A DNA stretch of 32,000 nucleotides from Candidatus Syntropharchaeum caldarium. GTDB taxonomy: Archaea > Halobacteriota > Syntropharchaeia > Syntropharchaeales > Syntropharchaeaceae. The translations under genes were made by a program, and so were the position numbers. Location: the NCBI GenBank assembly GCA_001766815.1, contig LYOS01000001.1, positions 270,001 through 302,000 of the forward strand, given 5' to 3'. Shown one piece after another: positions 14,162-31,918 of this stretch (its first letter is position 1; every line of letters begins with the position of its first letter). The notes under the pieces are model-generated. The model searched no databases and had not been told where the DNA came from. It saw only the letters and a program-made list of their open reading frames with translations.

Positions 14162-15238
14162 ATGAGTGCAGCAGAGATAACCGTGACGGATAGCGGTGCC
14201 CAGGAGGAATATAAAAAGTACATCGGGAGGAAGATTACATTTATCCTTTCCTCCTTCCTTCTTTTAATTCTCATCTTTGGCATATCCGCATCACTTGGAT
14301 CGGCAGATATAACGATATGGGATGCGTATGCTGCATTTCTTCATAGATTTTTCCCGGATCACTTCCATACAAGCTGGCTTGCAGATACATGCGTCTGGAA
14401 TCTGAGGCTTCCTCGCATCATGCTTGGCATCATCGCCGGTACCGGTCTTGCGATAGCAGGATCTGTGATGCAGGGGGTACTCAAGAATCCTCTTGCAAGT
14501 CCCTATACGCTTGGGATTTCAGCAGGTGCCGGTTTTGGCGCATCTCTTGCTATAATCGCAGGCGCAGGTTTTGTTGGAGGGGAGTATCTCATAATAGGAA
14601 ATGCTTTTGTCTTTGCAATCTTATGTTCATTCATCATCATCGGTTTTGCAAGCAGAAGAGGGGCGACACCTGAGACGATGATCCTTGCAGGTATCGCAAT
14701 TCTCTATATATTCTCTGCATCCACAACACTACTCCAGTACTTTGGCGAGGAGGAGGCTGTGGCACAATCGGTATTCTGGATGGTTGGTGATCTTGACAGG
14801 GCATCGTGGGGCAATGTAACGATGGCTGGTATCGTGGTTGCAGCCTGTGTCCCTTTACTTATGATAAAATCATGGGATCTCAATGCGCTGACTGCTGGTG
14901 ATGAGGCAGCACAGAGTATGGGTGTAAATGTTAAGCGTGTCAGAGTATTTACCATGCTGCTTGTAAGCCTTCTCGTTGCCAGCATCGTCTGCTTCACAGG
15001 TACGATCGGTTTCATAGGGCTTGTTGCACCGCATATAACGCGCATTGCCATTGGGGGGGATAATAGATTTTTACTTCCGGCATCAGGTCTGGCGGGTGCA
15101 GTGTTACTTGTTGGAGCGGATATCGTAGCAAGAAGAATTATTGCACCGGTTATTATCCCTGTGGGCGCGATTACAGCCTTTATGGGGGGTCCCCTGTTTT
15201 TGTATCTTATAATGAGAATGAGGAGGGAGTACTTTTGA
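14162..15238 (+). CDS. FecCD/BtuC-family ABC permease
   Basis: Polytopic membrane protein with the family-typical C-terminus GADIVARRIIAPVIIPVGAITAFMGGPLFLYLI. The start is trimmed to ATG 14162, 4 nt after the binding-protein stop. The ORF-track start 14135 would overlap that gene. Confidence 0.85.
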   Translation: MSAAEITVTDSGAQEEYKKYIGRKITFILSSFLLLILIFGISASLGSADITIWDAYAAFLHRFFPDHFHTSWLADTCVWNLRLPRIMLGIIAGTGLAIAGSVMQGVLKNPLASPYTLGISAGAGFGASLAIIAGAGFVGGEYLIIGNAFVFAILCSFIIIGFASRRGATPETMILAGIAILYIFSASTTLLQYFGEEEAVAQSVFWMVGDLDRASWGNVTMAGIVVAACVPLLMIKSWDLNALTAGDEAAQSMGVNVKRVRVFTMLLVSLLVASIVCFTGTIGFIGLVAPHITRIAIGGDNRFLLPASGLAGAVLLVGADIVARRIIAPVIIPVGAITAFMGGPLFLYLIMRMRREYF

Positions 15239-16008
15239 AACTTAAAGTAAACAATGTTGAATTCAGCTATAATAGCACGCCAGTTCTTGAAGATGTATCT
15301 ATGGAACTGGATCGATCAGAGATGCTCGGGATCGTTGGTCCGAATGGTGCTGGCAAATCCACGCTGATCCGGTGTATAGATAGGATCTTAAAGCCAACAC
15401 AGGGGAGCATTCATCTTGACGGGCAGGAAATAGAGGAGATGGGCATGATGGAGATCGCAAGGCACATCGGATATGTGCCGCAGAGTTATTCTGGTGTGTT
15501 TCCAGCAACGGTCTTTGATACGGTTCTTGTGGGCAGGCGCCCTCACATCGGATGGCGGAGCAGTGAATCAGACGAAGATAAGGTATGGGCGATACTGAAG
15601 ATGATGGGAATCGAGGATCTCGCCATGCGGGACTGGAGCGAGCTCAGCGGTGGTCAACAGCAGAAGGTGTTGATTGCAAGAGCGCTTGCCCAGGAGGCGG
15701 GCACGCTCTTACTCGATGAGCCCACTTCAAACCTTGACATAAGACACCAGATCGAGGTGATGGAAATCCTGAAGGATCTCGTGGAGAAAAAGGGGATCTC
15801 AGCGATAATGGCAGTCCATGACCTGAACCTTGCATCAAGATACACGGATCGTGTGATCATCATGAAAAACGGCAGAATATTTGACGCAGGCAGTCCCCTG
15901 GATGTCCTCACGCCTGAGAATATCAGATCGGTCTATGGCGTCGAGGTTGAGGTGGTCAACAGTAGCAGTGGAAAGCCACATATCGTGCCTGTGAGGTCTG
16001 TAACATAG
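15235..16008 (+). CDS. ABC ATPase, iron-chelate/cobalamin (FepC/BtuD) type
   Basis: Walker A GPNGAGKST, signature LSGGQQQK, Walker B LLLDEPTSNLD. The TTG start overlaps the permease stop (TTGA at 15235-15238), with an AGGAGGGA Shine-Dalgarno upstream. Confidence 0.9.
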   Translation: MKLKVNNVEFSYNSTPVLEDVSMELDRSEMLGIVGPNGAGKSTLIRCIDRILKPTQGSIHLDGQEIEEMGMMEIARHIGYVPQSYSGVFPATVFDTVLVGRRPHIGWRSSESDEDKVWAILKMMGIEDLAMRDWSELSGGQQQKVLIARALAQEAGTLLLDEPTSNLDIRHQIEVMEILKDLVEKKGISAIMAVHDLNLASRYTDRVIIMKNGRIFDAGSPLDVLTPENIRSVYGVEVEVVNSSSGKPHIVPVRSVT

Positions 16009-16044
16009 AAATGGGTCTGAGAGAATATCTGGGGGAAGTGAATC

Positions 16045-16854
16045 ATGGAAAAAGAAAAAGGAGAAATCGAATCTGATTGGGTAAAGGAGAAGATAAAAGA
16101 ATACTGGGATCTTACAAAGGAGCATGCTTTCTTCAAGGATGATGAGGAAGAAAAGGCATGGAGAAACTTTCTCTATGAAGAGTTTGGTGTAGAAAAACTA
16201 AAAATACTGGATGTTGGCACTGGTAACGGCTCTCTGGCACTTCTTCTTTCCGAGATAGGGCATGATGTTGTGGGAATTGACATATCAGATGGAATGTTAT
16301 CCGTAGCGAGAACGAAGGCAGAGGAGAGAGGAGTTAATCCAGATCTAAGGATTGGTGATGCTGAATCACTGGAATTCGAGGACGAAAGCTTCGATGCAGT
16401 CGTTAGCCGGATCGTCCTCTGGACACTCCCACATCCTGAGAGGGCTATAGCTGAGTGGAAGCGGGTGCTTAAGCCCGATGGGATGGTGTACACGTTTGAG
16501 ATCGATTCATCCGGCAGAAGGAGGCCCGGGTGGATTAAGAGAAATCTGGGACTTTTCTTGATTACCTTATCTGAGCGAAAGAATGCATGGAAGAGGTCAA
16601 ATTACAGCAAAGAAGTGAACGAAAAACTGCCGCTTGGCTTCGAGAAACCTTCTTCAACTATCATCAATAAGGTGGAACTTTTCAGGAAGGGTGGATTTGA
16701 GGATGTCTCGGTCTTTGCGATGGAAGAGGTGAGCGAGATATCCCGGAAGAATCGGGAGGACGTTTCACTGGGATATAAACTTGCACGGGGTGACATTGGC
16801 AATCATGCATGGTACTACATCAGGGGCTGTAAACCCGAGCAGGTGATGATATGA
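16045..16854 (+). CDS. Class I SAM-dependent methyltransferase (paralog 1)
   Basis: SAM motif I ILDVGTGNGSLALLL, then DVVGIDISDGML, GDAESLEFEDESFDAVVS and WKRVLKPDGMV. Starts 36 nt after the ABC ATPase gene. Confidence 0.85.
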   Translation: MEKEKGEIESDWVKEKIKEYWDLTKEHAFFKDDEEEKAWRNFLYEEFGVEKLKILDVGTGNGSLALLLSEIGHDVVGIDISDGMLSVARTKAEERGVNPDLRIGDAESLEFEDESFDAVVSRIVLWTLPHPERAIAEWKRVLKPDGMVYTFEIDSSGRRRPGWIKRNLGLFLITLSERKNAWKRSNYSKEVNEKLPLGFEKPSSTIINKVELFRKGGFEDVSVFAMEEVSEISRKNREDVSLGYKLARGDIGNHAWYYIRGCKPEQVMI

Positions 16855-17633
16855 ACAATACGAAGAATATGATAAAGGACTACTGGAATGGTAGATCATC
16901 GACCTTTGACAACTCTCCAGGGCACGTCATTGCCAATAGACGAGAAGAAACAGCATGGAAGTCTCTTCTTCAAGAAAAAATCGGTGAAACCGCTAAGAGA
17001 GTCCTTGACATAGGCACTGGTACAGGTTTTCTCTCGATTATGCTTGCTGAGATGGGATATGAGGTTGTTGGGCTTGATATATCAGAGGAGATGCTAAAAA
17101 GAGCAAATAAGAAGGCAATGGATCGGGGTGTTGAACTTGAGTTCAAACTGGGCGATGCTGAGAATCTTCCCTTTGAAACCGGATCATTCGATGCGATCGT
17201 GAATAGAGCGGTTCTATGGACGCTTCCAGATCCGAAGAATGCACTTACTGAGTGGAGACGTGTCCTGAAACCCGGCGGAAAACTCTGCTTCTTCCTTCAT
17301 GAACCGCATCCAGATGGAATGAGCCATCGAGTTCGAAAACAGATTGGAAACCTGTTCATCCTCATTTTTGAGAGAAGAAATCCATGGAACTCACTCTATG
17401 ACAGCGGGAAATTGGGGATAGAGCTTCCGTTCGGGGGTGGTGTGGAGCCGTCTGTGATAATTGAGCTTTTAGAAGAGACTGGATTCAGGCAGGTCTCTGC
17501 TGAGCCGATGGTAGAGATAGGCAGGTTAAAAAGAGAGGGTATACCTCTGTATCATAAAATAGCAACCAGCAAACACGTTCAGTACTGTTATACCGCTCTT
17601 AAACCGAATGGAGATGAACTTTCACAGGCGTAA
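16851..17633 (+). CDS. Class I SAM-dependent methyltransferase (paralog 2)
   Basis: VLDIGTGTGFLSIMLAEMGYEVVGLDISEEML, GDAENLPFETGSFDAIVN, WRRVLKPGGKL. ATGA overlap with paralog 1 (16851-16854). Confidence 0.85.
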   Translation: MNNTKNMIKDYWNGRSSTFDNSPGHVIANRREETAWKSLLQEKIGETAKRVLDIGTGTGFLSIMLAEMGYEVVGLDISEEMLKRANKKAMDRGVELEFKLGDAENLPFETGSFDAIVNRAVLWTLPDPKNALTEWRRVLKPGGKLCFFLHEPHPDGMSHRVRKQIGNLFILIFERRNPWNSLYDSGKLGIELPFGGGVEPSVIIELLEETGFRQVSAEPMVEIGRLKREGIPLYHKIATSKHVQYCYTALKPNGDELSQA

Positions 17634-17832
17634 AGGTAAAAGATAGATCATATTACAATTTGGATCCTCTGAGATGGAATTTCCTTCGTGATGGATGTAA
17701 GGCTTGTGAATAGAAGGAAATAATAAATATGGAAACGACAAAAACTGAACTGAGGATAGGGGGCATGAGATCTGGCTTGAAAAACTGAAAAACAAAGGTT
17801 CAAGGGAATGCAGAAAGAGGTGAAGTGATAAG

Positions 17833-18780
17833 GTGAACCCAGGCAATATCATCTTTGAGGCGCTTGAGATCTTCAAGCTGGTTCTACCTTTCATGTTTTT
17901 TGGACTGTTTTTAGCCAGTCTCATCCGCCTCTCGCCTTATTTTAAGCATATTGGATTGCCTATGTCACGTCTTGCATCAACCTCAAATCTCTCTGCGGAG
18001 TGTTCAACAGTGCTCACAATGTTCTTTGTTAACAACTGGGCCACGCTTGCAATGCTCTCTGATTTCTATCGAAAAAAGCTGGTAAGTGAAAAAGAGGTAA
18101 TTATAACGATGCTCGTTGGCTTTCTTCCAAAAGGGGTGCATGTTACCCTATTTTTCATGGCACCCATTGCAATCCCGGTACTCGGTCTTTCAGTTGGAGG
18201 GGTATACATATTGATGGAACTTTTAATCTATCTCGGAATCACCGCGGTTGGAATAGGACTGGGGAGGCTATGGCTCTATCCACAGATGCCTGGAGAGTTT
18301 GAGGATGGGAATCGCGAGGCGACCGCATGGCCGGAGAGATTGAAGATAAGCCTTACGGAGAGCGTGACTCAGTTCAAAAAGATAGTTGTGGTCTTGATCC
18401 CTACTGTGATAGTGGTCCTGTTACTTCTTGATCTTGGGCTGCTTGACCCGATCACCGAAGCCTGTGGCCCACTCTTAGATTCAGTGGGCCTTCCTTCTTC
18501 AAGCATGATAGTCATCGCTGCAAGCCTTATGAGCCAGATGGCTGCCATAGGAGCGGTCGGTACACTTCTCGGGAGTGGGTTGATCTCCCCTCTACACTGT
18601 TTGATCTTATTATTTATGGCACACTTCCTCCACATGGGTATAGGATGTATCAGACTGGGGCTTCCGATGAACATCTCACTCTTTGGCAGGTCACTGGGGT
18701 TAAAAGCTACGCTGATAACTTATTCGATGCTGGAGCTTGGCACCGCACTCGTCATCTTTTCGCTTGCTGGATTGCTCTGA
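17833..18780 (+). CDS. Polytopic membrane protein, possibly nucleoside-recognition (Gate/FeoB-C-like) domain
   Basis: 315 aa with a GTG start and multiple hydrophobic helices throughout. The resemblance to Gate-domain membrane proteins is an impression only. The coding call is well supported by length and hydrophobic periodicity; the function is not. Confidence 0.55.
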   Translation: MNPGNIIFEALEIFKLVLPFMFFGLFLASLIRLSPYFKHIGLPMSRLASTSNLSAECSTVLTMFFVNNWATLAMLSDFYRKKLVSEKEVIITMLVGFLPKGVHVTLFFMAPIAIPVLGLSVGGVYILMELLIYLGITAVGIGLGRLWLYPQMPGEFEDGNREATAWPERLKISLTESVTQFKKIVVVLIPTVIVVLLLLDLGLLDPITEACGPLLDSVGLPSSSMIVIAASLMSQMAAIGAVGTLLGSGLISPLHCLILLFMAHFLHMGIGCIRLGLPMNISLFGRSLGLKATLITYSMLELGTALVIFSLAGLL

Positions 18781-18837
18781 GAGAGTTCAAATGGTTTCAC
18801 TTAACAAGTTTTGATACTATTAAATAACACCAAAACC

Positions 18838-18852
18838 AAAAACTTTATTAAT
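18838..18852 (+). promoter_or_regulatory. Shared promoter cassette for the second SBP block
   Basis: Exact AAAAACTTTATTAAT. TAAGAGG starts exactly 26 nt after its last base, followed by a GGAGG Shine-Dalgarno and the ATG at 18902. Confidence 0.55.
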
Positions 18853-18901
18853 TAAGAATCCAATTCAATCACAATCTTAAGAGGAATGGAGGCTTTATTG
18901 A

Positions 18902-19164
18902 ATGAATCTGAATAAGATTGGTAGTTTAGCGATGGCAACTTTGATAGTCCTTGCGTCTGTTACGCTTCTGAGCATTGTGCCAGTATCGGCATCAGGTGAC
19001 TTCACATTGGGCATCTATGGCAATGCAAACCAGGATGATACGATCGATATGCGGGATGTCACAAAGATCGCACGGATGATCTGCTGGCTCGAGGATGAGG
19101 TGGAGTTAGCAGATGCGAAGTACGATGGGAATATAAATGTGCTTGATATAATCCAGACTGAGCT
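18902..19164 (+). repeat. Signal-peptide plus dockerin cassette, copy 2 (subtype 1)
   Basis: Near-identical to 12877-13139 (6 mismatches counted by eye). Confidence 0.9.
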
Positions 19165-20167
19165 TGTTATACTTGGAAGAGAGAAGGAGTTAACGGTTCT
19201 TGATTCTGCTGACAGGACGGTGACGGTTAAGGAGCCAGTTGAGAGGGTGGTTCCCCTTCACATGCGCCATGCAGGAACAGTCTGCGTGCTGGGTGCGGAT
19301 GATAAAGTGGTTGGCGTAGATAGTACGGTGATCTCACGCGGAAGGCTTTTTCCGGAACTCAGCACGCTGCCTTCCATTGGGACAGTACGGGTACCTGACC
19401 TGGAGCAGATATTGATGCTTAACCCGGATCTGATCATTACGTTCACAAACTTCCCTGACCCCGCCTCTCTTGAGGATAAGCTACCTGACACGGTATCTGT
19501 TATCCGTATGGACCTCTCAAGGGCAGATGATATACCAAGGGAGATGAAGATGCTTGGCTACATACTCGGCAGAGTCTCTGTGGCAGATGATTATATTGCC
19601 TGGTATGACGGGTATGTAGATGCGGTGAAGGAAAGGGTCTCAGCAATTCCAGCAGAGGAACGGGTCAACGTCTTTATGGAAAGGGAAAAGAAGACAGGGA
19701 AAGACCCACTTGTTCGATGGGCCTATGCATCAGGGACGGGATACACTGACCTATGTGCTGTGGCAGGTGGTATAAACATCGCGGAGGATTATATCGACTA
19801 TCACGGCGATGTCGAGACGGAATGGGTGGTTGACCAGAATCCAGATGTTATCATCGGATTATCCTACAAAGGTGGGTATGAGGTGGATGATGATACAGCG
19901 ATGAGGGAGTATTACGAGGAGATAATTGGTCTGCCAGGCTTTGAGAACGTCACCGCGGTTAAAGATGATCGAGTTCATATAATCTCGGGTGACTTCTCAA
20001 TCGGAGCACAGCTGCCCATCGGGATTGTAACGGTTGCAAAATGGTTCTATCCAGATAAATTCGAGGATCTTGATCCGGATGAGATTCACGAGGAGTTTCT
20101 CACGGAGTTTATGCAAATAGAGTACGATCTTGACGAATGGGGCGTGTTTGTGTACCCTGATATCTGA
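18902..20167 (+). CDS. Second FecB/BtuF-type ABC substrate-binding protein with an N-terminal dockerin (no adjacent permease)
   Basis: 421 aa. The first 88 aa or so are almost identical to 12877..14157 (signal peptide plus dockerin). The binding domain is diverged (ELTVLDSADRTVTVKEPVERVVPL..., NPDLIITF, DQNPDVIIGLS). Confidence 0.85.
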   Translation: MNLNKIGSLAMATLIVLASVTLLSIVPVSASGDFTLGIYGNANQDDTIDMRDVTKIARMICWLEDEVELADAKYDGNINVLDIIQTELVILGREKELTVLDSADRTVTVKEPVERVVPLHMRHAGTVCVLGADDKVVGVDSTVISRGRLFPELSTLPSIGTVRVPDLEQILMLNPDLIITFTNFPDPASLEDKLPDTVSVIRMDLSRADDIPREMKMLGYILGRVSVADDYIAWYDGYVDAVKERVSAIPAEERVNVFMEREKKTGKDPLVRWAYASGTGYTDLCAVAGGINIAEDYIDYHGDVETEWVVDQNPDVIIGLSYKGGYEVDDDTAMREYYEEIIGLPGFENVTAVKDDRVHIISGDFSIGAQLPIGIVTVAKWFYPDKFEDLDPDEIHEEFLTEFMQIEYDLDEWGVFVYPDI

Positions 20168-20208
20168 AAGATGCGATTAATTTGAATGAGGTAAGGAGGA
20201 ATTATTGA

Positions 20209-21948
20209 ATGAATCTGAATAAGATTGGTGGTTTGGCGATGGTAACTTTGATGGTGCTATCGATTCTACTGCCATTTACAGTTATGCCCGCGTCTGCAAC
20301 ACTCTTCGGTGATGCGAACACTGATACAACGATCGATATGCGGGATGTGACAAAGATCGCACGGATGATCTGCTGGCTCGATCCAGAGACAGACGCTGCA
20401 GATGCAAATAACGATGGATCTGTGAATGTGCTTGATATAATTTATACAGAGCTTATCATCCTTGAACGAGTGCCGTTTCCAGGTGGTGAACTCAGGGCAG
20501 CGATGATATTTGGGCCCAAAAGTGATTCACTCGATCCAGCTTACTCGTGGACAGGATGGTATGTGAGAAAAGCCGGGATTTACGAGACACTCTTCAGCTA
20601 TGACGAGAATATGAGACTTCAAGATGAGCTTGCAACAGGTTACAGCCAGATCAGCGATACCGAGTGGAGGATATACCTGCGAGACGGTGTCAGGTTCCAT
20701 GACGGCACACCACTAAACGCTGATGCCGTGATCTACTCCCTTGAGCGGGTGATGGATCCTTCAAACAGCAGGCACACACAGTACGACTTTATTGAGTCTG
20801 TATCAAAGTTTGATGAACACACGGTGACAATCATAACAAAAGAACCTTATGCCCCAACGATCGCAAGTTTGACAGATCCTGTGGTCTCGATCGTGAGTCC
20901 CGCGGCAAACGATCTCGCTCATAACCCTGTAGGTACAGGTCCGTTCAAGTTTGTCGACCATGAACAGGGTGTGAGTTTAACTGTTACAAGAAACGATGAC
21001 TACTGGGGTGGGGCTGTCAAGCTCGAGGGTGCGATCTTCTACTATGTGAGCGATCCATTGACAAGGTCACTCATGCTCGAGGGTGATGATGTCGATATCG
21101 CACGGGGTATACCACAGAGTGAGTACAATGAGATCGAGGATGATCCCGATCTCGAGGTTCTGACCAAAGAGACGCTTCGGACCTACTTCATGTATGTGAA
21201 TACGAGGAAAGCACCGCTTGATGATGTGAGGGTTAGACAGGCTATAAACTATTGCATCGATCGTGAAGAGATCGTTGATACAGCACTTGAAGGTGTCGGT
21301 GGCACGCCTACAAAGAGTGTCTTCCCATCGATTTTACCATGGTCTGCAAATGACGAGCTGGAGGGATACACGTTCAATCAGGCAGAAGCACTATCGCTAC
21401 TTGAAGCGGCTGGTATTACAGACACCGATGGCGATGGCTGGCTTGATTATAATGGTGAGACCTTTGAGCTTACGATAAAGACCTACACCAAGCGACCTGA
21501 GCTCCAGCCAACTGCTGAAGTGATGGTGAGCCAGCTTGAGGATATCGGGATCAAGGCAAGTGTGATTATCCTTGAAACAGGTGCTCTGAAGGCTGATATG
21601 AATGACGGTAACTTCGATCTTGCGCTCTATGCATGGGGTACCGCCCCGACAGGAGATCCGGACTACTTCCTCTCGTACCACTTTGAGTCAACAGGAAAGT
21701 ATGCGGGATGGACAGGTTATTCAAACCCTGATGTGGATAACTGGATAGAGCTTGGACGGAGAACGATGAACGAGGACGATCGATATGAGTACTATGCCAA
21801 TGTACAGGAGCAGATACTCGAGGACTCGCCAGAGATCTTTGTATTCTATCAGAACGAACTTGTAGGAGAGAATACACGGGTAATCGGCTATGAGATATTC
21901 CCGAACGAGATATCTTTCCTGACAAAGGATGTGTACATTGGAAAATAG
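20209..21948 (+). CDS. Family-5 (NikA/DppA/OppA-type) ABC substrate-binding protein with an N-terminal dockerin
   Basis: 579 aa. The signal peptide starts with the same MNLNKIGxLAM. Dockerin at about 20305-20469 (DANTDTTIDMRD..., DANNDGSVNVLD...). A typical family-5 core follows (LRDGVRFHDGTPLNADAVIYSLERV, NPVGTGPFKF). AAGGAGG Shine-Dalgarno upstream. Confidence 0.85.
   Translation: MNLNKIGGLAMVTLMVLSILLPFTVMPASATLFGDANTDTTIDMRDVTKIARMICWLDPETDAADANNDGSVNVLDIIYTELIILERVPFPGGELRAAMIFGPKSDSLDPAYSWTGWYVRKAGIYETLFSYDENMRLQDELATGYSQISDTEWRIYLRDGVRFHDGTPLNADAVIYSLERVMDPSNSRHTQYDFIESVSKFDEHTVTIITKEPYAPTIASLTDPVVSIVSPAANDLAHNPVGTGPFKFVDHEQGVSLTVTRNDDYWGGAVKLEGAIFYYVSDPLTRSLMLEGDDVDIARGIPQSEYNEIEDDPDLEVLTKETLRTYFMYVNTRKAPLDDVRVRQAINYCIDREEIVDTALEGVGGTPTKSVFPSILPWSANDELEGYTFNQAEALSLLEAAGITDTDGDGWLDYNGETFELTIKTYTKRPELQPTAEVMVSQLEDIGIKASVIILETGALKADMNDGNFDLALYAWGTAPTGDPDYFLSYHFESTGKYAGWTGYSNPDVDNWIELGRRTMNEDDRYEYYANVQEQILEDSPEIFVFYQNELVGENTRVIGYEIFPNEISFLTKDVYIGK
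20305..20469 (+). repeat. Dockerin cassette, subtype 2, N-terminal copy
   Basis: Shares an identical 53-nt run (ATCGATATGCGGGATGTGACAAAGATCGCACGGATGATCTGCTGGCTCGATCC, from 20332) with 27389 onward, plus further similarity up to the ...TACAGAGCTTATCAT end. Confidence 0.85.
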
Positions 21949-21964
21949 AAGAAATGGTTTGATC

Positions 21965-24552: not shown

Positions 24553-24583
24553 ATTGAATAGTAGCATTTGGTAATACTAAAAC

Positions 24584-24598
24584 AAAAAGTTTATTAAT
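24584..24598 (+). promoter_or_regulatory. Shared promoter cassette for the cooC-like / second Nik-type operon
   Basis: AAAAAGTTTATTAAT. TAAGAGG starts exactly 26 nt after its last base, followed by an AGAGGT Shine-Dalgarno and the ATG at 24646. Confidence 0.55.
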
Positions 24599-24645
24599 TA
24601 ATAGCTTGATTCTACCATGACCTTAAGAGGAACAGAGGTATAATC

Positions 24646-25787: not shown

Positions 25788-25801
25788 GGAGGCTGTAAAG
25801 A

Positions 25802-27532
25802 ATGAGAAAATTGCTGGTCTTTCTGATGCTGGCAGCACTTCTTGCAAGTGGGTTTGCAGGGATGCCGGCAGCAGCAGAAGATAAGAAGGTCTTGAAGATC
25901 GAAGGAGGAGATTACGGTTACCCATCCCCCTTCACATTCTATTCAAGAGGTCCGGGGTACATCAGGATGAGCCTCATCTTCGATACCTTGACATGGAAGG
26001 ATGATGAGGAGATAATACCGTGGCTTGCAAAGAGCTGGAAGTCTGAGAATGGCGGTATGAAATGGACGCTGTATCTCGAGGATGATGTGAGGTGGCATGA
26101 TGGCGAGCCGCTAACGGCAGATGATGTGAAGTTCACATACGAGTATATCAAGGATCATAGTGGAACCCCTCTCTTCAAATGGTTCAGTGTCCTGAACTAT
26201 ATGGATCATGTGGAGGCTCCCAATGATCGAACGGTTGTTGTAACCTTAACAGATCCGTTGCCATCCTTCTTGACCGACTTTGCTGGCTGCATCCCGATAA
26301 TTCCGGAGCACATCTGGAAGGATGTTTCAGATCCAACCAGATTCACAGATCCGGAAGCGGTTATCGGAAGTGGACCTTTCAAGCTTGCTGAGTACAACAA
26401 GGCTGAAGGTTACTACCTCTATGAGGCAAATGAGGACTACTTCAAGGGAGTGCCCCTCGTTGATGAGCTAATCCTCCTTGAGGTGGGTGATCCCGCACTT
26501 GCACTAAGCGCCGGGGAGATCGATGAGGCGAGCTTCTGGGGTAGTGAGATTGATGCGGTTGAGACGTTTGAAGCGGATCCGAACTTTGAGGTGATATCTG
26601 GTCCAAGTTTCTGGGTGCTGAAGACGATCTTCAACTGCGAGAAGTACCCGACAAATATACCGGATTTCAGAAGAGCAATAGCATACGGGATAGACAGGGG
26701 TGAAATCATCGATCAGGTGGTGCACGGTGGTGCGATAGTCGCAAACACAGGTATTCTTCATCCGGACTCAAGCTGGTATATGCCAGGCCTTCCGGATTAT
26801 GCGAAGAATGATGCAGTGGCAAATCAACTCCTCGATGATCTTGGCTTCATAGATACAGATGGTGATGGTATAAGAGAGTATCCATCTGGTGAAGATCTTG
26901 AGTTTGAGCTTTTGACAGGAGACAGGTTCGCACGTGAGGCAGAACTTATACAGGAGCAGCTTGAAGCGATCGGGATAAAGACGACCGTCAAGGCGATGAG
27001 TACAAAGACGCTTGACGCTATCCTCAAGGAGGGTAACTTCTACATTGCGGTATCAGGACATGGAGGGGTCGCAAATCCAAACCTGCTGGAGACACCAAAC
27101 TGGCCAGGGGACACGTATCATAACGACAGTTACGATTCGATCTTTCTGGAGCAGGAGACTGAGATGAACCATGCAAAGCGAAAGGATCTTGTGAATCAAC
27201 TGCAGGAAACGATCGCAAACGATTTACCTGTCTACACACTCTACCATCCGTTGATGTGGTCTGTTTACAATCCGGATAAGCTTGACAGGTGGTTCTATAC
27301 ACTGGATGGCGTCGCAACGGGCATACCGATTGAGATGAACAAGCTCATATTCTTTGCAAGGTTTGGCGATGCAAACGAGGACGGTGATATCGATATGCGG
27401 GATGTGACAAAGATCGCACGGATGATCTGCTGGCTCGATCCTGAGGCAGACGCTGCAGATGCGAACCGTGATGATAAGCTTAATGTGCTTGATATAATCT
27501 ATACAGAGCTTATCATACTTGGAAGGGTATAG
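25802..27532 (+). CDS. Family-5 (NikA/DppA/OppA-type) ABC substrate-binding protein with a C-terminal dockerin
   Basis: 576 aa. Signal peptide MRKLLVFLMLAALLASGFAGMPAAA with no Cys. Family-5 core (LEDDVRWHDGEPLTADDVKFTYEYI, IGSGPFKLAEY). The last 56 aa or so (27362-27529) are a dockerin: GDANEDGDIDMRDVTKIARMICWLDPEADAADANRDDKLNVLDIIYTELIILGRV. AAGGAGG Shine-Dalgarno upstream. Confidence 0.85.
   Translation: MRKLLVFLMLAALLASGFAGMPAAAEDKKVLKIEGGDYGYPSPFTFYSRGPGYIRMSLIFDTLTWKDDEEIIPWLAKSWKSENGGMKWTLYLEDDVRWHDGEPLTADDVKFTYEYIKDHSGTPLFKWFSVLNYMDHVEAPNDRTVVVTLTDPLPSFLTDFAGCIPIIPEHIWKDVSDPTRFTDPEAVIGSGPFKLAEYNKAEGYYLYEANEDYFKGVPLVDELILLEVGDPALALSAGEIDEASFWGSEIDAVETFEADPNFEVISGPSFWVLKTIFNCEKYPTNIPDFRRAIAYGIDRGEIIDQVVHGGAIVANTGILHPDSSWYMPGLPDYAKNDAVANQLLDDLGFIDTDGDGIREYPSGEDLEFELLTGDRFAREAELIQEQLEAIGIKTTVKAMSTKTLDAILKEGNFYIAVSGHGGVANPNLLETPNWPGDTYHNDSYDSIFLEQETEMNHAKRKDLVNQLQETIANDLPVYTLYHPLMWSVYNPDKLDRWFYTLDGVATGIPIEMNKLIFFARFGDANEDGDIDMRDVTKIARMICWLDPEADAADANRDDKLNVLDIIYTELIILGRV
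27362..27529 (+). repeat. Dockerin cassette, subtype 2, C-terminal copy
   Basis: Shares the 53-nt identical run with 20332 onward. The same module that is N-terminal in three other SBPs sits here at the extreme C-terminus. Confidence 0.85.
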
Positions 27533-27537
27533 CTTCA

Positions 27538-27575
27538 GGAGAGGGTAAATAAAACCCTTTTCTTCATTTTTTCAG
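27538..27575 (+). terminator. Hairpin plus T-tract between the SBP and permease genes (terminator or attenuator)
   Basis: GGAGAGGGT (27538-27546) pairs with ACCCTTTTC (27554-27562), including G:U pairs, around the loop AAATAAA. TTCATTTTTTC follows. Confidence 0.45.
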
Positions 27576-27585
27576 GATAATAACG

Positions 27586-28566
27586 ATGCACCACCTGACA
27601 AAGATCACCGCGTATATTCTTATCATCTTTGTAGCCATCTCTATCAATTTCGCGCTTCCAAGGATGATGCCGGGCGATCCGATAACCTCCCTGACAGATG
27701 ATCCAACGACAGGGATGCCTGTGATCATGGATGAGGATCTAAAAGAAGAGATTCGCTCATACTACGGGCTTGACAAACCCATATCCGAACAATTTACAGG
27801 TTACCTGAAGGATATTCTGAAATGCGATCTCGGGTGGTCGATATACTACAACGCCCCGGTTGCTGAGGTGATCTTTGAGCGATTGAAGTGGACCCTGCTT
27901 CTTGTTGGAACGTCCACACTGATCTATATGATTCTGGGAATCTTTCTCGGAGCGGTATCGGCATGGAAGAGGGGTGAGAGAGGCGATCTTGGCCTTCTTG
28001 TATCGGTCTTATCTATCGGTTCATTTCCCTCATTCTTCCTCGCGATGCTCTTTATCATTCTGTTTGGGGTAAAGCTTGACATCTTTCCAATATTTGGTGC
28101 AACCACACCATTTATGGAGTATTCAAGCACTTTTGATGCGTTCAAGGATGTTCTGTATCACCTGATTCTCCCGGCATCAACCCTTGTTTTAACCTCGATC
28201 GATGGACCCTATCTCCTGATGCGAAACTCGATGCTTGGTGTACTTGGGGAAGATTATATCGTGACCGCAAGGGCGAAAGGGCTCACAGAGTGGGCAATAC
28301 TCAAGGATCATGCGATAAAGAATGCTCTGCTTCCGATCACCACGGTCATCGCTATTCGGATGGGTTTTATGATATCCGGGGCGATATTTGTTGAGACCGT
28401 CTTTGCATATCCTGGTATTGGGAAGTTACTCTATGATGCGGTCTCTTTCTCTGACTATCCGCTCCTGCAGGGTGCATTCCTGATCATAACCCTGATAATA
28501 ATTGCTGCGAATTTTATTGCGGATATGACCTATTTATATCTGGATCCAAGGGTGAAACATGGATGA
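27586..28566 (+). CDS. ABC permease, DppB/NikB/OppB type
   Basis: 326 aa. INFALPRMMPGDP and ARAKGLTEWAILKDHAIKNALLPITT. Confidence 0.9.
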   Translation: MHHLTKITAYILIIFVAISINFALPRMMPGDPITSLTDDPTTGMPVIMDEDLKEEIRSYYGLDKPISEQFTGYLKDILKCDLGWSIYYNAPVAEVIFERLKWTLLLVGTSTLIYMILGIFLGAVSAWKRGERGDLGLLVSVLSIGSFPSFFLAMLFIILFGVKLDIFPIFGATTPFMEYSSTFDAFKDVLYHLILPASTLVLTSIDGPYLLMRNSMLGVLGEDYIVTARAKGLTEWAILKDHAIKNALLPITTVIAIRMGFMISGAIFVETVFAYPGIGKLLYDAVSFSDYPLLQGAFLIITLIIIAANFIADMTYLYLDPRVKHG

Positions 28567-29414
28567 GGGAAGCTCTCAAATCCGGGAATGTTTTTTGTAA
28601 AAACCGAATAGGCGTTACAGGACTCGGCATTCTGAGTGTTTTTATCCTGACCGCGATCTTTGCGCCGTTTCTCGCACCCTATGATCCGTGTGAGATGTTT
28701 GAGCCGATGGCACCTCCTGATTCTCAGCACGTACTTGGAACAAATGACATTGGTCAGGATATCTGGAGCGAACTGATCTATGCCAGCAGAATCTCACTAT
28801 TTATCGCCTTCACGACATCCATCATAGCAACGTTCATCGGAACTTTATCTGGCCTTTTTTCGGGCTACTATGAGCGTTTCGGGTTTTTTGTGATGCGGGT
28901 CGTGGATCTCTTCCTTGCGCTGCCAAGGCTCCCACTGATCATCATACTTGCGGTATTTATGCCAACGAGCATCTGGAATCTTATTATTATATTTGTCTTA
29001 TTTGGATGGCCCATCACGACACGTATCATACGATCAGAGGTTTTAACGCTTCGAACCCGACCATATATCGATTCTGAAAGGATGATGGGTGCGGGAGATC
29101 TTTATATTCTGGGGCGTCACATTCTCCCAAATATCTTTCCACTGGTTGTTGTCCAGTTTGTGATGGAGGCACGGCATGTGATACTTGCAGAGGCGGGTTT
29201 GAGCTTCCTGGGCCTTGGTGATCCAACATCAAAGAGCTGGGGGATGATGCTCCACTACGCGTTCGAGTATCCGACAATCTTCATATCAGAGGTATGGAAA
29301 TGGTGGATGCTGCCTCCAGGTCTCTGCATCGTTGTTGTGATACTTGCACTTGTATTTGTTGGTTTTGCACTTGAAGAGATATTAAATCCAAGGTTGAGGA
29401 GAGAGATAGTATGA
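28563..29414 (+). CDS. ABC permease, DppC/NikC/OppC type
   Basis: 283 aa. FLAPYDP, VLGTNDIGQDIWSELIYASRISL and MGAGDLYILGRHILPNIFPLVV. ATGA overlaps with the neighbouring genes at both ends. Confidence 0.9.
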   Translation: MREALKSGNVFCKNRIGVTGLGILSVFILTAIFAPFLAPYDPCEMFEPMAPPDSQHVLGTNDIGQDIWSELIYASRISLFIAFTTSIIATFIGTLSGLFSGYYERFGFFVMRVVDLFLALPRLPLIIILAVFMPTSIWNLIIIFVLFGWPITTRIIRSEVLTLRTRPYIDSERMMGAGDLYILGRHILPNIFPLVVVQFVMEARHVILAEAGLSFLGLGDPTSKSWGMMLHYAFEYPTIFISEVWKWWMLPPGLCIVVVILALVFVGFALEEILNPRLRREIV

Positions 29415-30346
29415 ATCTCCTTAAAATCAAAGCTCTCAGGGTCTACTTCCCAACCGATGATGGCATCGTGAAAGCGGTGGATGGGGTTGATCTAAATATA
29501 AAAAGGGAAGAGATACTGGGGCTTATCGGAGAGACGGGGTGTGGAAAGACGGTTCTTGGCATGTCGATCATGCGATTGATCCAGTCCACCACGCTAACAG
29601 ATGGTGAGATAATCTACAAAGACAGAGATCTTCTTTCCTTGAGCGATGATGAGATGCGAAAGATCAGGGGAGGTGAGATCGCGATGGTCCTCCAGAACCC
29701 GATGACCTCTTTGAATCCAGTCATAAGGGTTGGTGAACAGATCGCAGAGACGATCAGACTCCATCAGGGACTGGATAAAAAAGCTGCAAGAAAGCGTGTC
29801 ATCGAGATGCTGCGTGATGTGAGGATTCCAGATCCTGAAAAATCGGTCGATTCATATCCTCATCAGCTAAGCGGTGGGATGCAGGAACGGGTGATGATCG
29901 CGATGGCACTTGCATCCGATCCTGAGCTTATCATCGCAGATGAGCCGACTAAGGGGCTGGATGTGACGGTTAAGAGAGAGATAATCAGGCTTATGAAGGA
30001 AGTGACAGCTAAAAGATCGATGCTATTCATAACACACGATCTCGGGGCTGCAGCAGAGATCTGTGATAATATTGCTGTGATGTATGCCGGAGAGCTTCTT
30101 GAACATGCCAGTGTAGATTCTATATTCAGTGAGCCGCTGCACCCTTACTCAGAAGGACTACTGAACTCTCTTCCAGAAAGAGGTCTAAAACCGATAAGAG
30201 GTATCAGTCCGTCGCTTATCGATACGCCACAGGGATGCAGGTTTCACCCGAGATGTGATTATGCGATGGAGATATGCAGGGAAAAGCATCCTGAGATGGT
30301 TAAATTAGAGGATGGACGTGCTGTGAGGTGTTTCCTGTATGCTTGA
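29411..30346 (+). CDS. ABC ATPase, DppD/OppD/NikD type
   Basis: Walker A GETGCGKT, signature LSGGMQER, Walker B IIADEPTKGLD, and the oligopeptide-type C-terminal extension (PLHPYSEGLLNSLP...GCRFHPRC). Confidence 0.9.
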   Translation: MNLLKIKALRVYFPTDDGIVKAVDGVDLNIKREEILGLIGETGCGKTVLGMSIMRLIQSTTLTDGEIIYKDRDLLSLSDDEMRKIRGGEIAMVLQNPMTSLNPVIRVGEQIAETIRLHQGLDKKAARKRVIEMLRDVRIPDPEKSVDSYPHQLSGGMQERVMIAMALASDPELIIADEPTKGLDVTVKREIIRLMKEVTAKRSMLFITHDLGAAAEICDNIAVMYAGELLEHASVDSIFSEPLHPYSEGLLNSLPERGLKPIRGISPSLIDTPQGCRFHPRCDYAMEICREKHPEMVKLEDGRAVRCFLYA

Positions 30347-31100
30347 AGTTAAAGGCCTCAGCAAGTATTTTTCTTCAGGAATATTAAGAAAGCGTTACAC
30401 AAAAGCCGTGGATGATGTAAATTTCAGTATAAAGAGGGGTGAGACGCTCGGGCTTGTGGGGGAGAGTGGATGCGGTAAAACAACGCTCGGGAGATCCATC
30501 CTGCGGCTCATTGAACCAACCGCTGGGAAAGTCCTCTTCGATGGTATAGATATACTAAAACTGAATAAGAAAGAGCTTAGAACTTTCAGACCCAGGATGC
30601 AGATGATCTTTCAGGATCCCGATGCATCGCTGAATCCCAGAATTAAGATCAAAGAAAGTATTGCAGAGCCATTGAAGCTTCAGAGGGTGGAAAAATGTGA
30701 GATTGAGGGAAAGGTTCAGGAACTTATGGAAAAGGTGGGATTGAGTCCTGAGCATGCAAACCGCTATCCACACCAGTTGAGCGGTGGACAGAATCAGAGG
30801 GTCGTTCTTGCAAGGGTACTTGCTCTAAATCCTGATTTTATCGTTGCAGATGAGCCTACTTCCGCCTTAGATGTCTCTGTTCAGGCGCAGATCTTGAATC
30901 TGATACAGGATCTAAAACGTGAGCTTAACCTGACGCTTCTTTTTATATCGCATGATCTTGAGGTTGTGCGGTATATGAGCGACAGGATCGCGGTGATGTA
31001 TGGTGGTAAGATCGTTGAGATGGGGGATGTGGAAGATATATTCAATAACGCAAAGCACCCTTATACAAAGCTGCTCGTGTCAGGAAAGGAGGTGGTATGA
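30339..31100 (+). CDS. ABC ATPase, DppF/OppF/NikE type
   Basis: Walker A GESGCGKTT, signature LSGGQNQR, Walker B IVADEPTSALD, and HPYTKLL near the C-terminus. Confidence 0.9.
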   Translation: MLEVKGLSKYFSSGILRKRYTKAVDDVNFSIKRGETLGLVGESGCGKTTLGRSILRLIEPTAGKVLFDGIDILKLNKKELRTFRPRMQMIFQDPDASLNPRIKIKESIAEPLKLQRVEKCEIEGKVQELMEKVGLSPEHANRYPHQLSGGQNQRVVLARVLALNPDFIVADEPTSALDVSVQAQILNLIQDLKRELNLTLLFISHDLEVVRYMSDRIAVMYGGKIVEMGDVEDIFNNAKHPYTKLLVSGKEVV

Positions 31101-31918
31101 TCAGAGCCATAGACTGGAACAAACGCTGGATGGAAGCGATGGAGAATAGTTCATTGAGAAGATGTCGTGAGAATATGACAGCATTCTGGAACAGAAGAGC
31201 CAGGCGATATAACGAAGCGGTGAAACGTAATAATCGTTCGATGGAGATGATATCGAAGTTAGATATCGATCCAGCGTACACTGTACTTGATATTGGTGCA
31301 GGACCTGGCACGCTAACGATTCCACTTGCAAAGCGGGTGAAACATGTAACGGTCGTAGAGCCCTCCAGTGGGATGCTCGTCTGTCTGAAGGAGAATGCAA
31401 GAAGTGAGGGATTGAAAAATATAACCTGCATAAACAAGAGATGGGAGGATATCGTCCCTGGAGTCGATCTTGATGAGCACGATCTTGTGATAGCATCCTA
31501 CTCGCTCGCGATGCTGGATATGAAAGAAGCACTCTCGAAGATGAACAGGGTTGCAAGACGATCTGTTTATCTATTTGACTTTGCAGGAGGTCGTATGAAG
31601 GGCTACAGTGAACTCTGGCCCAGGCTGTACGGTGAGGAATTTCGAGCAAGGCCTGATTACATCTATCTCTACAACATCCTCTATGAGATGGGGATCTATG
31701 CAAACGTTGAGATCTCAAAGACCGAGTTCAAAGAGCGATTTTCAAGTCTAAATGAGGCGATAGAGGAATGGAAGGAGAATCTTGGTGTATCAACGCCAGA
31801 AGCAGAGGAAGTGATAAGAACCTATCTCTCAGCGAATCTGGTCGAAGAAGACGGTGCGTTCTACTTGAAGAATGAAATAAAGTCTGCGATGATCTGGTGG
31901 AAGAAAACAGACGGATAA
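31097..31918 (+). CDS. SAM-dependent methyltransferase (fourth; a family distinct from paralogs 1-3)
   Basis: SAM motif I VLDIGAGPGTLTIPLAKRVKHVTVVEPSSGML. ATGA overlap (31097-31100) with the stop of the ABC ATPase gene. Confidence 0.7.
   Translation: MIRAIDWNKRWMEAMENSSLRRCRENMTAFWNRRARRYNEAVKRNNRSMEMISKLDIDPAYTVLDIGAGPGTLTIPLAKRVKHVTVVEPSSGMLVCLKENARSEGLKNITCINKRWEDIVPGVDLDEHDLVIASYSLAMLDMKEALSKMNRVARRSVYLFDFAGGRMKGYSELWPRLYGEEFRARPDYIYLYNILYEMGIYANVEISKTEFKERFSSLNEAIEEWKENLGVSTPEAEEVIRTYLSANLVEEDGAFYLKNEIKSAMIWWKKTDG

Follow-up and report, generated by a model that had tools for sequence, protein, structure and literature searches.

Class I methyltransferases encoded within chelate-type importer operons of Candidatus Syntropharchaeum caldarium and other anaerobes

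We analyzed a 32,000-nucleotide (nt) stretch of the genome of the archaeon Candidatus Syntropharchaeum caldarium (GCA_001766815.1, contig LYOS01000001.1, positions 270,001 to 302,000), hereafter the window, whose own numbering is used for all of its positions. Bases 12877-31918 of its plus strand form three ATP-binding cassette (ABC) importer units, termed A, B and C, with four genes for S-adenosylmethionine (SAM)-dependent methyltransferases (MT1 to MT4), the subject of this study, all inside them. A first-pass annotation had suggested from this repeated, translationally coupled pairing that methyltransferases (MTs) and importers are functionally linked. Our analysis supports such a link, as the adjacency recurs across archaea and Firmicutes, and we tentatively propose that the enzymes process the organic carrier on which a trace metal or cofactor enters the cell.

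Four methyltransferase genes in three importer units

The limits of the three units were set from gene spacing and promoter-like motifs. Unit A runs in the order SBP1, FecCD permease, ATPase, MT1, MT2 and then a Gate-domain protein. Unit B (18902-24552) consists of SBP2, NikA1, MT3, NikB1 and NikC1, with both classes of substrate-binding protein (SBP) in one operon; our reading of the open reading frames (ORFs) of the window found no ATPase gene within it or after NikC1. Unit C comprises a CooC-family ATPase, a Flavin_Reduct-like gene, NikA2, NikB2, NikC2, NikD, NikE and MT4. The genes are as follows.

12877-14157, + strand: SBP1, FecB/BtuF-type with N-terminal dockerin (Peripla_BP_2, PF01497, E 4.9e-23; dockerin repeat 12993-13154)
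14135-15238, + strand: FecCD/BtuC-type permease (top NCBIfam models FhuB, BtuC and FecCD, all below cutoff)
15235-16008, + strand: FecE/BtuD-type ABC ATPase (NCBIfam 'corrinoid ABC transporter ATPase', 251.6 bits against a cutoff of 537)
16045-16854, + strand: MT1, class I SAM methyltransferase, divergent member of the MT1-3 family without the SPGH motif (Methyltransf_11, E 2.3e-28)
16851-17633, + strand: MT2, canonical MT1-3 family member (Pfam, E 1.3e-30)
17833-18780, + strand: polytopic membrane protein with Gate domain (PF07670; Pfam Gate, E 2.3e-10)
18902-20167, + strand: SBP2, FecB-type with dockerin, first gene of unit B (PF01497, E 5e-26; dockerin repeat 19018-19179)
20209-21948, + strand: NikA1, NikA/Opp5A-type SBP with N-terminal dockerin (SBP_bac_5, E 2.8e-95, and Dockerin_1)
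22035-22790, + strand: MT3, MT1-3 family, between NikA1 and the permeases (Pfam, E 8.7e-29)
22791-23738, + strand: NikB1 permease (NCBIfam NF045470 'nickel ABC transporter permease', 378.1 bits against a cutoff of 350)
23722-24552, + strand: NikC1 permease (ORF and translation; matches NikC genes of related loci)
24646-25404, + strand: CooC-family P-loop ATPase with CxC motif, first gene of unit C (PDB CooC1, 3kje, E 7.2e-24, full length)
25401-25787, + strand: Flavin_Reduct-like split-barrel gene, N-terminally truncated (PF01613, E 3.4e-13, profile positions 58-136)
25802-27532, + strand: NikA2, SBP with C-terminal dockerin-like module (SBP_bac_5, E 9.2e-77; dockerin repeat 27364-27525)
27586-28566, + strand: NikB2 permease (NCBIfam Opp2B nickel permease model, 250.5 bits against a cutoff of 350)
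28563-29414, + strand: NikC2 permease (ORF)
29411-30346, + strand: NikD ATPase (top NCBIfam models OppD, DppD and NikD)
30339-31100, + strand: NikE ATPase (translation and matches to second ATPase genes of related Nik loci)
31097-31918, + strand: MT4, class I SAM methyltransferase of a second family (Methyltransf_25, E 2.7e-13)

The junction sequences agree with the spacing given in the first-pass annotation. MT1 starts 36 nt past the stop of the unit A ATPase (16008), and the ATG of MT2 overlaps the MT1 stop in an ATGA. The stop of MT3 stands directly against the NikB1 ATG at 22791 (TAGATG, a 0-nt spacer), and the ATG of MT4 overlaps the stop of NikE (30339-31100) in an ATGA. An 86-nt gap separates MT3 from the NikA1 stop (21948); an alternative in-frame ATG at 21981 is possible, and the family alignment favours 22035. 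The Flavin_Reduct-like gene at 25401 likewise overlaps the stop of the cooC-like gene in an ATGA, and the translation of the latter (24646-25404) contains the motif GCACPMG.

Based on profile, motif and fold, all four proteins are class I (Rossmann-fold) SAM methyltransferases, with predicted catalysis. They passed the Pfam models Methyltransf_11 and Methyltransf_25 far above threshold (41-106 bits against cutoffs of 21-27; E 1e-13 to 1e-30), as the first-pass annotation had called them. MT1, MT2 and MT3 are 39-43% identical to one another (MT1-MT2 39%, MT1-MT3 43%). MT4, which had been taken as their fourth paralog, has ~28% identity to them over 85-135 residues of the SAM-binding core only and, judged by sequence, is a member of a separate, well-populated family of its own. 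The MT1-3 family numbers 649 homologs at E ≤ 1e-10 in a word-indexed search; an exhaustive search at E ≤ 1e-30 gave 931 clusters (50% identity). The MT4 family has 721 homologs at E ≤ 1e-8, chiefly from Methanosarcinales and the anaerobic methanotrophic lineage ANME-1. The strongest homologs of the window MTs reach E values down to 1e-165 and 1e-177, and Methanosarcinaceae and Methanococcoides assemblies encode homologs that are 74-80% identical.

Both families have invariant residues within and outside the SAM site. In a 16-sequence alignment of MT1-3, the SAM motifs D53, G55, G57, G59, D76 and D102-A103-E104 are invariant. The motifs that had been noticed as common to MT1-3 (YW[DN], WTLP and the W.RV region) proved to contain invariant positions in the same alignment, where W12 (YW[DN]), W36, LWTLP.P, and W135 with R137 (EW.RV) lie outside the SAM site; L192-P193, opening an LPF.GG motif, is also invariant, and an ERRNPW motif is nearly so. 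In the MT4 family alignments, D65, G67, G71 and P89 of the SAM motifs are invariant and S90 nearly so, together with invariant W7, W11, E117 (WED motif) and N193 (YLYN motif) and a nearly invariant W116. No cysteine is invariant or nearly invariant in either family (alignments A1, A2 and A3).

AlphaFold2 models of MT2 and MT4 (mean predicted local distance difference test scores of 87.8 and 86.3) are capped Rossmann folds with a generic likeness to small-molecule MTs, at template modelling (TM) scores of 0.5-0.68. Their best Foldseek matches are all class I MTs with a probability of 1.00; the neighbours include a structural-genomics MT of M. mazei, LahSB, phosphoethanolamine MTs, MitM, Tam, TmtA/GtmA, BioC and JHAMT. 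Among solved structures, LahSB is the closest sequence relative of MT1-3 (E 1.4e-26, profile positions 44-236), and the top PDB profile for the MT4 family is CbiT (2yxd), over residues 49-126 only. The PDB and Foldseek comparisons indicated a substrate for neither family, finding generic small-molecule MTs only.

The curated families UbiE, ArsM, CpaM, DVU_1556, BioC, CbiT and TehB were rejected, with scores far below their NCBIfam cutoffs, by two- to five-fold for the first six. For UbiE/MenG (TIGR01934; cutoff 158), MT1-3 scored 72-80 bits and MT4 29.7 bits, and the 'UbiE' labels on homologs in the source databases are generic. ArsM gave 55-67 bits against a cutoff of 263, together with the lack of a conserved cysteine, and CbiT gave 36.8 bits for MT4 against 78.3, with the PDB match partial. 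CpaM (NF043040), the first-ranked NCBIfam model for MT3 and MT4 (followed by CbiT for MT4) and one of the three best for MT1 and MT2, gave 41-80 bits against 180; no corrinoid-protein gene was found among the scanned genes of window positions 8355-31918 or in the look-up loci described below. Nicotianamine synthase or a CntL-type enzyme was rejected as well, since the four MTs had no nicotianamine synthase match in Pfam at E ≤ 0.01. The profile and structure searches therefore placed the enzymes in no characterised family with an unrelated substrate, NCBIfam scores being all far below cutoff and structural matches generic; that the substrate cannot be assigned from the sequence, as had been stated at the outset, still holds after them.

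The importer halves were compared with curated models in the same way. Against the nickel-transporter cutoffs of NCBIfam, NikB1 was above (378/350), while NikA1 (321/600), NikB2 (251/350) and NikD (229/319) were below; for NikA1 the top match was Opp5A_nikA, with 320.9 bits against a cutoff of 600. The FecCD-type permease (230 vs 461) and the ATPase (252 vs 537) were both below the BtuFCD cutoffs, and for the ATPase at 15235-16008 the heme and FecE models rank after 'corrinoid ABC transporter ATPase'. The window SBPs missed all curated NCBIfam cutoffs. PDB neighbours of NikA1 include nickel-binding proteins, and those of the window SBPs as a group left the ligands undefined. The metal specificity of the window importers is one that we infer from family models and the CooC gene.

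A 162-nt dockerin-coding module is present in one copy in each of the four SBP genes (12993-13154, 19018-19179, 20307-20468 and 27364-27525), N-terminally in three and C-terminally in NikA2. On the 5' side of the importers (8355-12816) lie genes for three cohesin-domain surface proteins; one has four cohesins and a dockerin, and the other two, as read from their translations, have one cohesin each and an apparent C-terminal membrane anchor. Judging from these domains, a cohesin scaffold probably displays the four SBPs. Direct repeats are also present inside the gene for the large cohesin protein (9876-10571 and 11460-11642): two 300-nt cohesin-coding copies are 88% identical, and the dockerin halves are a duplicated 81-nt segment. 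Five nearly identical copies of a motif resembling a B recognition element and TATA box, AAAA[CG]TTTATTAA[TC], occur at ~8300, ~9710, ~18845, ~24590 and ~31985. These TTTATTAA-type motifs stand 5' of two cohesin genes, unit B, the CooC-led unit C and whatever comes after MT4, which suggests co-regulated strong promoters and helps to set the operon starts. A transfer RNA gene (2230-2301, - strand; RF00005, 65.6 bits) lies between the genes 1607-2266 and 2312-3922.

Recurrence of the pairing and its regulatory context

To place the pairing in a wider context, gene neighbourhoods were looked up for relatives that are 33-76% identical to the window genes (loci designated by L numbers below). The MT gene was found in or beside a NikABCDE/Opp-type or FecB/BtuF-type importer operon in all 11 look-ups of closer relatives, drawn from Methanosarcinales, Methanothrix, Methanotorris, Archaeoglobus, ANME-1, Thermincola and Clostridia. 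Conservation of the adjacency extends over five or more archaeal orders and several lineages of Firmicutes, and the genome studied here is not alone in having it.

Gene order is recognizable across wide distances. A Methanosarcinaceae locus (L081) reads NikABC, NikABC, MT1-MT2, a major facilitator superfamily (MFS) gene, an MT4-like gene, an MT3-like gene and NikABCDE, and its MT1 ortholog, 73% identical, stands in tandem with the MT2 ortholog. Methanothrix-like loci (L084-86) have the order FecB-FecCD-ATPase-MT-Gate, as in unit A; the NikA-MT-NikB-NikC order of unit B recurs in L005 (51% identity to MT3) and L015 (44%). The MT follows NikABCDE in Methanotorris (L087) and precedes it in Archaeoglobus (L088). 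In Thermincola potens (L090), CooT is followed by NikAABCDE-MT and then by FmdE-MT-FmdE-Nik...-MT, and a cellulolytic clostridium (L101) has a split-barrel gene, a fused MT~MT and NikABCDE. MT4-family genes stand beside FecB-type importer genes in a spore-forming Firmicute (L095) and in L099 and L100, and the pairing in this family also occurs in metagenome loci. Comparison of the ORFs of fetched loci added pairings from Bacillota, Dialister, Veillonella, Lachnospiraceae, Oscillospiraceae, Methanoregula, Methanospirillum, Methanotrichaceae and an actinomycete. Both MT families occur together in single loci in the window, L015 and L081.

Two archaeal loci of the MT4 family have a wider gene content. 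In a Methanosarcinales locus (L092), two FecB genes, FecCD, an ATPase and the MT4 ortholog are followed by a PPOX-class split barrel and, further on, NifD/K/H-like genes; in the stretch 5851-10821, the genes after the MT4 ortholog encode the PPOX-class split barrel, which is of the F420 type, then an ABC ATPase, two NifD/K-like proteins and a NifH-like protein scoring above the cutoff of the model 'nitrogenase reductase-like protein'. An ANME-1 locus (L097) encodes three FecB SBPs, an MT, FecCD, an ATPase, four further MTs and a split barrel. Within its positions 3591-12302, the importer with its three SBP genes is followed by three genes of the MT4-like kind, two of the Methyltransf_2 kind that include dimerisation domains, the PPOX-class split barrel and a tetratricopeptide-repeat protein, an unusually methyltransferase-rich content; BchU is the best match of the Methyltransf_2 genes, far below cutoff.

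Orthologs of one MT stand with either transporter class, Nik-type in L081 and FecB-type in L084-86. Together with the presence of both SBP classes in unit B, this points to a common kind of acceptor. The position of the MT gene varies: it precedes the SBP, stands between SBP and permease, or follows the ATPase. In full-length relatives at greater distance, the pairing was found, roughly and among the matches listed, in 10 of 22 cases for the MT1-3 family and 12 of 52 for the MT4 family, and in 6 of the 8 listed loci with 41% or more identity to MT4. The matches listed in a contig scan with the MT1-3 alignment were mostly distant relatives; those from Streptomyces and Bradyrhizobium, which share the SAM domain only, had no transporter and provide just a negative contrast. 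As a random gene would stand beside such an operon ~1% of the time by our rough estimate, these rates indicate that the link between MT and importer is a property of orthologous groups that weakens with divergence.

Riboswitches connect part of the bacterial operons to cofactor supply. In all three bacterial MT4-family loci (L095, L099 and L100), a cobalamin riboswitch (RF00174, 106-119 bits) lies directly 5' of the MT, which leads an operon of the order MT-Peripla_BP_2-FecCD-ATPase. A molybdenum cofactor (Moco) riboswitch stands 5' of two distant MT4-like operons that are 26-27% identical to MT4. One of these (L179, 90-5843) encodes FmdE-zf, MobB, an NTPase, Peripla_BP_2, FecCD, an ATPase and the MT; the other (L170, 1229-3947) has, beside the MT gene, one for a double ABC ATPase and a fragment of a molybdopterin oxidoreductase gene. 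Such operons under Moco riboswitches imply a place for FecB-type importers in molybdenum/tungsten cofactor supply. L095 carries a second cobalamin riboswitch (11898-12060), 5' of a gene (12420-16822) for a 1867-amino-acid surface protein with faint Cobalamin_bind and prenyltransferase-repeat matches and a surface Ig-like domain, which may be a Gram-positive corrinoid-capture protein. When 181 loci were searched with an nhmmer model of the four cobalamin riboswitches, no additional copies came up, and no riboswitch was found in the window.

The nickel context is given by NikB1, which is above the nickel-permease cutoff, by the CooC-family ATPase in the MT4 operon and by CooT ahead of the L090 operon. 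NikR-like hexamers in the window were scattered single matches, with no paired site 5' of the operons. In two loci of gut Firmicutes, the sequence ATCCCCCCGGGGGGCTTCC lies just 5' of the -10 region of MT-Nik operons (L030, ~9826, Dialister; L035, ~9862, Oscillospiraceae), and a second copy is present in L035 at ~15774. This C6G6 palindrome looks like a shared operator similar to the G/C-tract sites of CsoR/RcnR; no CsoR/RcnR-type regulator gene was found near the sites.

Several kinds of partner gene recur. FMN split-barrel proteins of the Flavin_Reduct or PNPOx/PPOX class are encoded in the window (25401-25787) and in L042, L092, L097, L101, L107 and L118. A pair of a CooC-like homolog (52% identical) and a Flavin_Reduct-like gene adjoins MT4-like genes in L107 and L118. 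Gate-domain homologs that are 43-46% identical follow MT2 orthologs in L003 and L084-86, with more distant ones in L088 and L118; the Gate-domain protein has no PDB relative. FmdE-zf occurs in L090, L135 and L179, and L054 has genes for an M20 peptidase, a radical SAM protein and an AstE/AspA deacylase. L109 encodes DUF364/DUF4213, a family previously tied to ABC transporters for rare metals (PMC2954201).

Among fusions, tandem MT~MT proteins make up ~29 of the top 150 representatives of the MT1-3 family and mirror the MT1-MT2 gene pair; such tandem arrangements, in genes or in one protein, suggest that methylation occurs twice or that a heterodimer forms. One representative (P0269) is an MT-AstE/AspA-MT fusion and another (P0305) a PepSY_TM-MT fusion; like the split-barrel flavoproteins and the M20 and AstE/AspA genes of L054, they are of a kind common in the processing of chelates. 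A cytochrome P450-MT fusion (P0318) was also seen.

Proposed processing of an imported carrier and alternative explanations

We favour, at a probability of about 0.45, the reading that MT1-3 and MT4 act in the cytoplasm as small-molecule methyltransferases and that their task is to process the organic carrier, a chelator or cofactor scaffold, delivered by chelate-type importers. Gene coupling, family membership, conserved adjacency, riboswitch control, partner genes and fusions are observed, and the acceptor, the chemistry and the purpose are proposed on that basis. Both families would be accessory enzymes dedicated to NikA/Opp-type and FecB/BtuF-type importers that supply trace-metal cofactors, with nickel in the window and cobalt/corrinoid and molybdenum/tungsten in relatives. 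The importer would bring in the metal on an amino-acid- or peptide-derived chelator or, for some, a corrinoid-type scaffold, and translational coupling would keep the MT in fixed proportion to the transporter. The MT would then methylate the carrier in the cytoplasm, most plausibly at a donor group such as a carboxylate. A split-barrel flavoprotein would work alongside by reduction, at times with deacylases or peptidases, so that the metal would be released or the ligand trapped or tailored; the metal would pass on to chaperones, CooC here and FmdE and MobB elsewhere.

This reading is favoured since the nickel, cobalt/B12 and molybdenum/tungsten contexts share a chelate-type importer and cytoplasmic enzymes that may act on an organic ligand, followed by metal chaperones. 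The first-pass annotation had listed an imported ligand, such as a chelator, a tetrapyrrole/corrinoid precursor or a metalloid, and a transporter or scaffold component as candidate acceptors. An imported organic ligand is preferred given the cobalamin and Moco riboswitches in bacteria, the flavoprotein and deacylase partners and the PepSY_TM fusion; a metalloid is disfavoured by the lack of an invariant cysteine, and a transporter or scaffold protein found no support. That a carboxylate accepts the methyl group is a reasonable guess by analogy, based on the resemblance to LahSB, Tam, BioC and JHAMT, the conserved arginine and tryptophan residues and the deacylase and peptidase partners.

Several points weigh against carrier processing. 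Neither sequence nor models specify the methyl acceptor or the methylated atom. In the wider families, part of the members lack the adjacency (present in 10/22 and 12/52, among the matches listed). As the contexts range over nickel, cobalt/B12 and molybdenum/tungsten, a single ligand class is an assumption, and the Moco-linked members, 26-27% identical to MT4, may have a different substrate. No riboswitch was found at the bacterial MT1-3-type loci, where metal specificity is read from Nik annotation and CooT. The Flavin_Reduct-like gene of the window lacks the ~70 N-terminal residues found in its L107 and L118 homologs (48-49% identical) and may be a decayed copy. We know of no metallophores from methanogens or from these Firmicutes, and of no characterised precedent for metal release by chelator methylation.

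A bolder form of the proposal, possible and on balance doubtful, is an undescribed pathway of trace-metal acquisition widespread in strict anaerobes (methanogens, ANME archaea and Firmicutes of gut and sediment), marked by the two MT families. Nickel, cobalt and molybdenum/tungsten would enter on an organic carrier, and its SAM-dependent methylation, in many cases double and linked to a flavoprotein, would set the metal free or allow the carrier to be recycled. If true, it would be a new mechanism of metal release for imported chelates, and it would imply an undescribed metallophore in methanogenic and methanotrophic archaea.

Cofactor tailoring is an alternative that we consider unlikely and yet the best of the competing explanations. 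Here the importers would salvage whole cofactors, corrinoids through the FecB/BtuF-type systems and possibly other tetrapyrroles, and the MTs would modify them after uptake; they might methylate a ring substituent or the lower ligand, or transfer the methyl group of SAM to Co(I) that the neighbouring flavoprotein has reduced. The cobalamin riboswitch directly 5' of the MT-BtuFCD-like operons in L095, L099 and L100 would fit, as would the second L095 riboswitch, ahead of the surface protein with faint Cobalamin_bind matches. Such riboswitches are no proof of a corrinoid cargo, however, since they also govern cobalt-ion uptake genes. CpaM is the top NCBIfam match for MT3 and MT4, and CbiT is next for MT4 and the best PDB profile of its family, but these matches cover the SAM-binding core only and are far below cutoff. 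Further support comes from the BchU-like Methyltransf_2 genes in L097 and L099, the PPOX-class split barrels in L092 and L097, the NifH/D/K-like genes after the MT4 ortholog in L092 and the best match of the window ATPase, 'corrinoid ABC transporter ATPase'. Tailoring leaves unexplained the Moco-riboswitch operons with FmdE and MobB, the nickel contexts of Nik-type importers, CooC and CooT, MT4's own setting included, and the AstE/AspA, M20 and PepSY_TM partners. A reading confined to tetrapyrroles was demoted when the Moco-riboswitch operons were found.

It is also conceivable, with a probability that we put lower still, that the MTs make or finish a secreted chelator, which an MFS or Gate protein exports and the importer brings back as a metal complex, as in a cnt-like system. 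The operon logic resembles that of staphylopine, where an exporter and an importer of the Opp/Nik family accompany SAM-using enzymes. In L081 the two MT pairs flank an MFS gene, and in the window, L003 and L084-86 the gene after MT2 or its ortholog encodes a Gate-domain membrane protein; tandem and fused MTs suggest multi-step chemistry, and the presence of the module in nickel, cobalt and molybdenum/tungsten regulons is what a broad-spectrum chelator would predict. Most loci, however, consist of one MT and an importer, without an exporter or other biosynthetic enzyme. A single methylation of a common metabolite is unlikely to give a good chelator, the MTs match canonical methyltransferase models best and have no nicotianamine synthase or CntL-type match, and the AstE/AspA and M20 hydrolases suggest breakdown, not synthesis.

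A role as partner of the transporter itself appears very unlikely. The MT would bind the ABC ATPases and either methylate a transporter component or act as a SAM-sensing regulatory subunit. The translational coupling of an MT to the last ATPase gene in the window, and likewise in L084, L090 and L170, is consistent with this, as is the association of one MT family with two unrelated transporter classes that have only the ATPase fold in common. Against it, the position of the MT gene is not fixed relative to SBP, permease or ATPase, and no MT-ATPase or MT-permease fusion was found in the six non-tandem architectures checked among the top 150 representatives, the fusion partners being enzymes or PepSY_TM. 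The fold neighbours are capped small-molecule MTs, not protein MTs.

Detoxification is equally hard to sustain and has, in our estimate, a marginally smaller chance. In this case the MTs would act as ArsM, TehB or TPMT do and methylate toxic metalloids or analogues (arsenic, selenium, tellurium or thiol-reactive compounds) that promiscuous importers let in accidentally. Weak generic matches to the models of these three enzymes and the thiol methyltransferases TmtA and GtmA among the structural neighbours speak for it. The ArsM score is only 55-67 bits against a cutoff of 263, and ArsM chemistry depends on conserved cysteines, whereas an invariant cysteine is absent from both family alignments. 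In addition, B12 and Moco riboswitches would raise expression in cofactor shortage rather than under toxic stress, and chelate-type importers are not known as routes for these oxyanions.

The absence of any functional link, with abundant class I MT genes of Methanosarcinales merely riding in convenient operons, is the least credible explanation: the drop of adjacency in the wider families (10/22 and 12/52, among the matches listed) and the abundance of class I MTs (269,435 representatives at E ≤ 0.001) would allow it, but the pairing occurs in 11/11 look-ups across archaeal orders and Firmicutes, gene order is kept (NikA-MT-NikB; FecB-FecCD-ATPase-MT-Gate), the riboswitch runs straight into the MT gene in three bacterial loci and family-specific invariant motifs lie outside the SAM site.

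Relation to known systems and significance

Cytoplasmic ligand-processing enzymes are known from chelate-uptake operons and include the siderophore esterases Fes and IroD, the ferric-siderophore reductases FhuF, ViuB/YqjH and FoxB (a PepSY_TM protein), and CbiZ from corrinoid-uptake loci of archaea. Like the genes for these enzymes, the MT genes are embedded in, and would be co-expressed with, a FecB/BtuF-type or related importer and presumed to act on the imported ligand, and flavin reductase-like and PepSY_TM partners occur with the MTs as well. The MT loci differ in using a SAM methyltransferase, in also serving Nik/Opp-type importers and in standing in nickel, B12 and Moco rather than iron contexts.

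In the staphylopine (cnt) system of Staphylococcus aureus, CntKLM are responsible for biosynthesis, CntABCDF is an Opp-family importer for nickel, cobalt and zinc chelates, and CntE is the exporter. The MT loci likewise have SAM-using enzymes beside a Nik/Opp-family importer and a possible exporter near the MTs (MFS in L081, Gate in the window). They lack a nicotianamine-synthase-like or opine dehydrogenase gene, most have no exporter, the MTs match canonical methyltransferase models, and the window SBPs score 125 and 94 bits for CntA against a cutoff of 800.

Among single proteins, LahSB (PDB 6uak), a lanthipeptide C-terminal carboxyl MT, shares the capped class I fold and ranks second in Foldseek for MT1-3. 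Identity is ~19% and TM ~0.5-0.56, and no genes for ribosomally synthesised and post-translationally modified peptides were found in any MT locus; the resemblance may be taken as a lead on chemistry, not as evidence of the same substrate. CpaM, a hypothetical equivalog defined by its association with corrinoid biology, is a class I MT as well. The window MTs, in contrast, are not members (41-80 bits vs 180), and the window has no adjacent corrinoid protein gene. The transporter halves appear to belong to the same classes as BtuFCD and the NikABCDE/Opp2-Opp5A importers, and the bacterial MT4 operons are under a cobalamin riboswitch like btuFCD, whereas the described importers have no methyltransferase and the window SBPs carry dockerins and fall below the curated cutoffs.

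Full-text literature searches, whose coverage is incomplete, found no description of a SAM methyltransferase as partner of Nik/Opp- or FecB/BtuF-type importers. An accessory ligand-processing enzyme in a chelate-uptake operon is known as such, and a methyltransferase in that role, across three metal-cofactor regulons, appears to be new.

The pairing of MT and importer is probably the sign of a step in trace-metal or cofactor uptake that has not yet been studied. The demand for nickel, cobalt and molybdenum/tungsten is very high in methanogens, ANME archaea and acetogenic or CO-oxidising Firmicutes, which live in settings where sulfide makes these metals scarce, and to our knowledge the metal acquisition of these organisms is poorly understood. 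A conserved MT with translational coupling to the importers, in some bacteria also under riboswitch control, gives a concrete handle on metal uptake by anaerobes. Once known, the methyl acceptor would reveal the cargo of the importers, whether free chelate, corrinoid or other cofactor, and how it is processed, and re-annotation would follow for many 'UbiE-like methyltransferase' genes, the MT1-3 family alone comprising 931 clusters. The finding may also be relevant to trace-metal dosing of anaerobic digesters and, as Dialister, Veillonella and Lachnospiraceae carry the module, to the cobamide and nickel economics of the gut microbiota.

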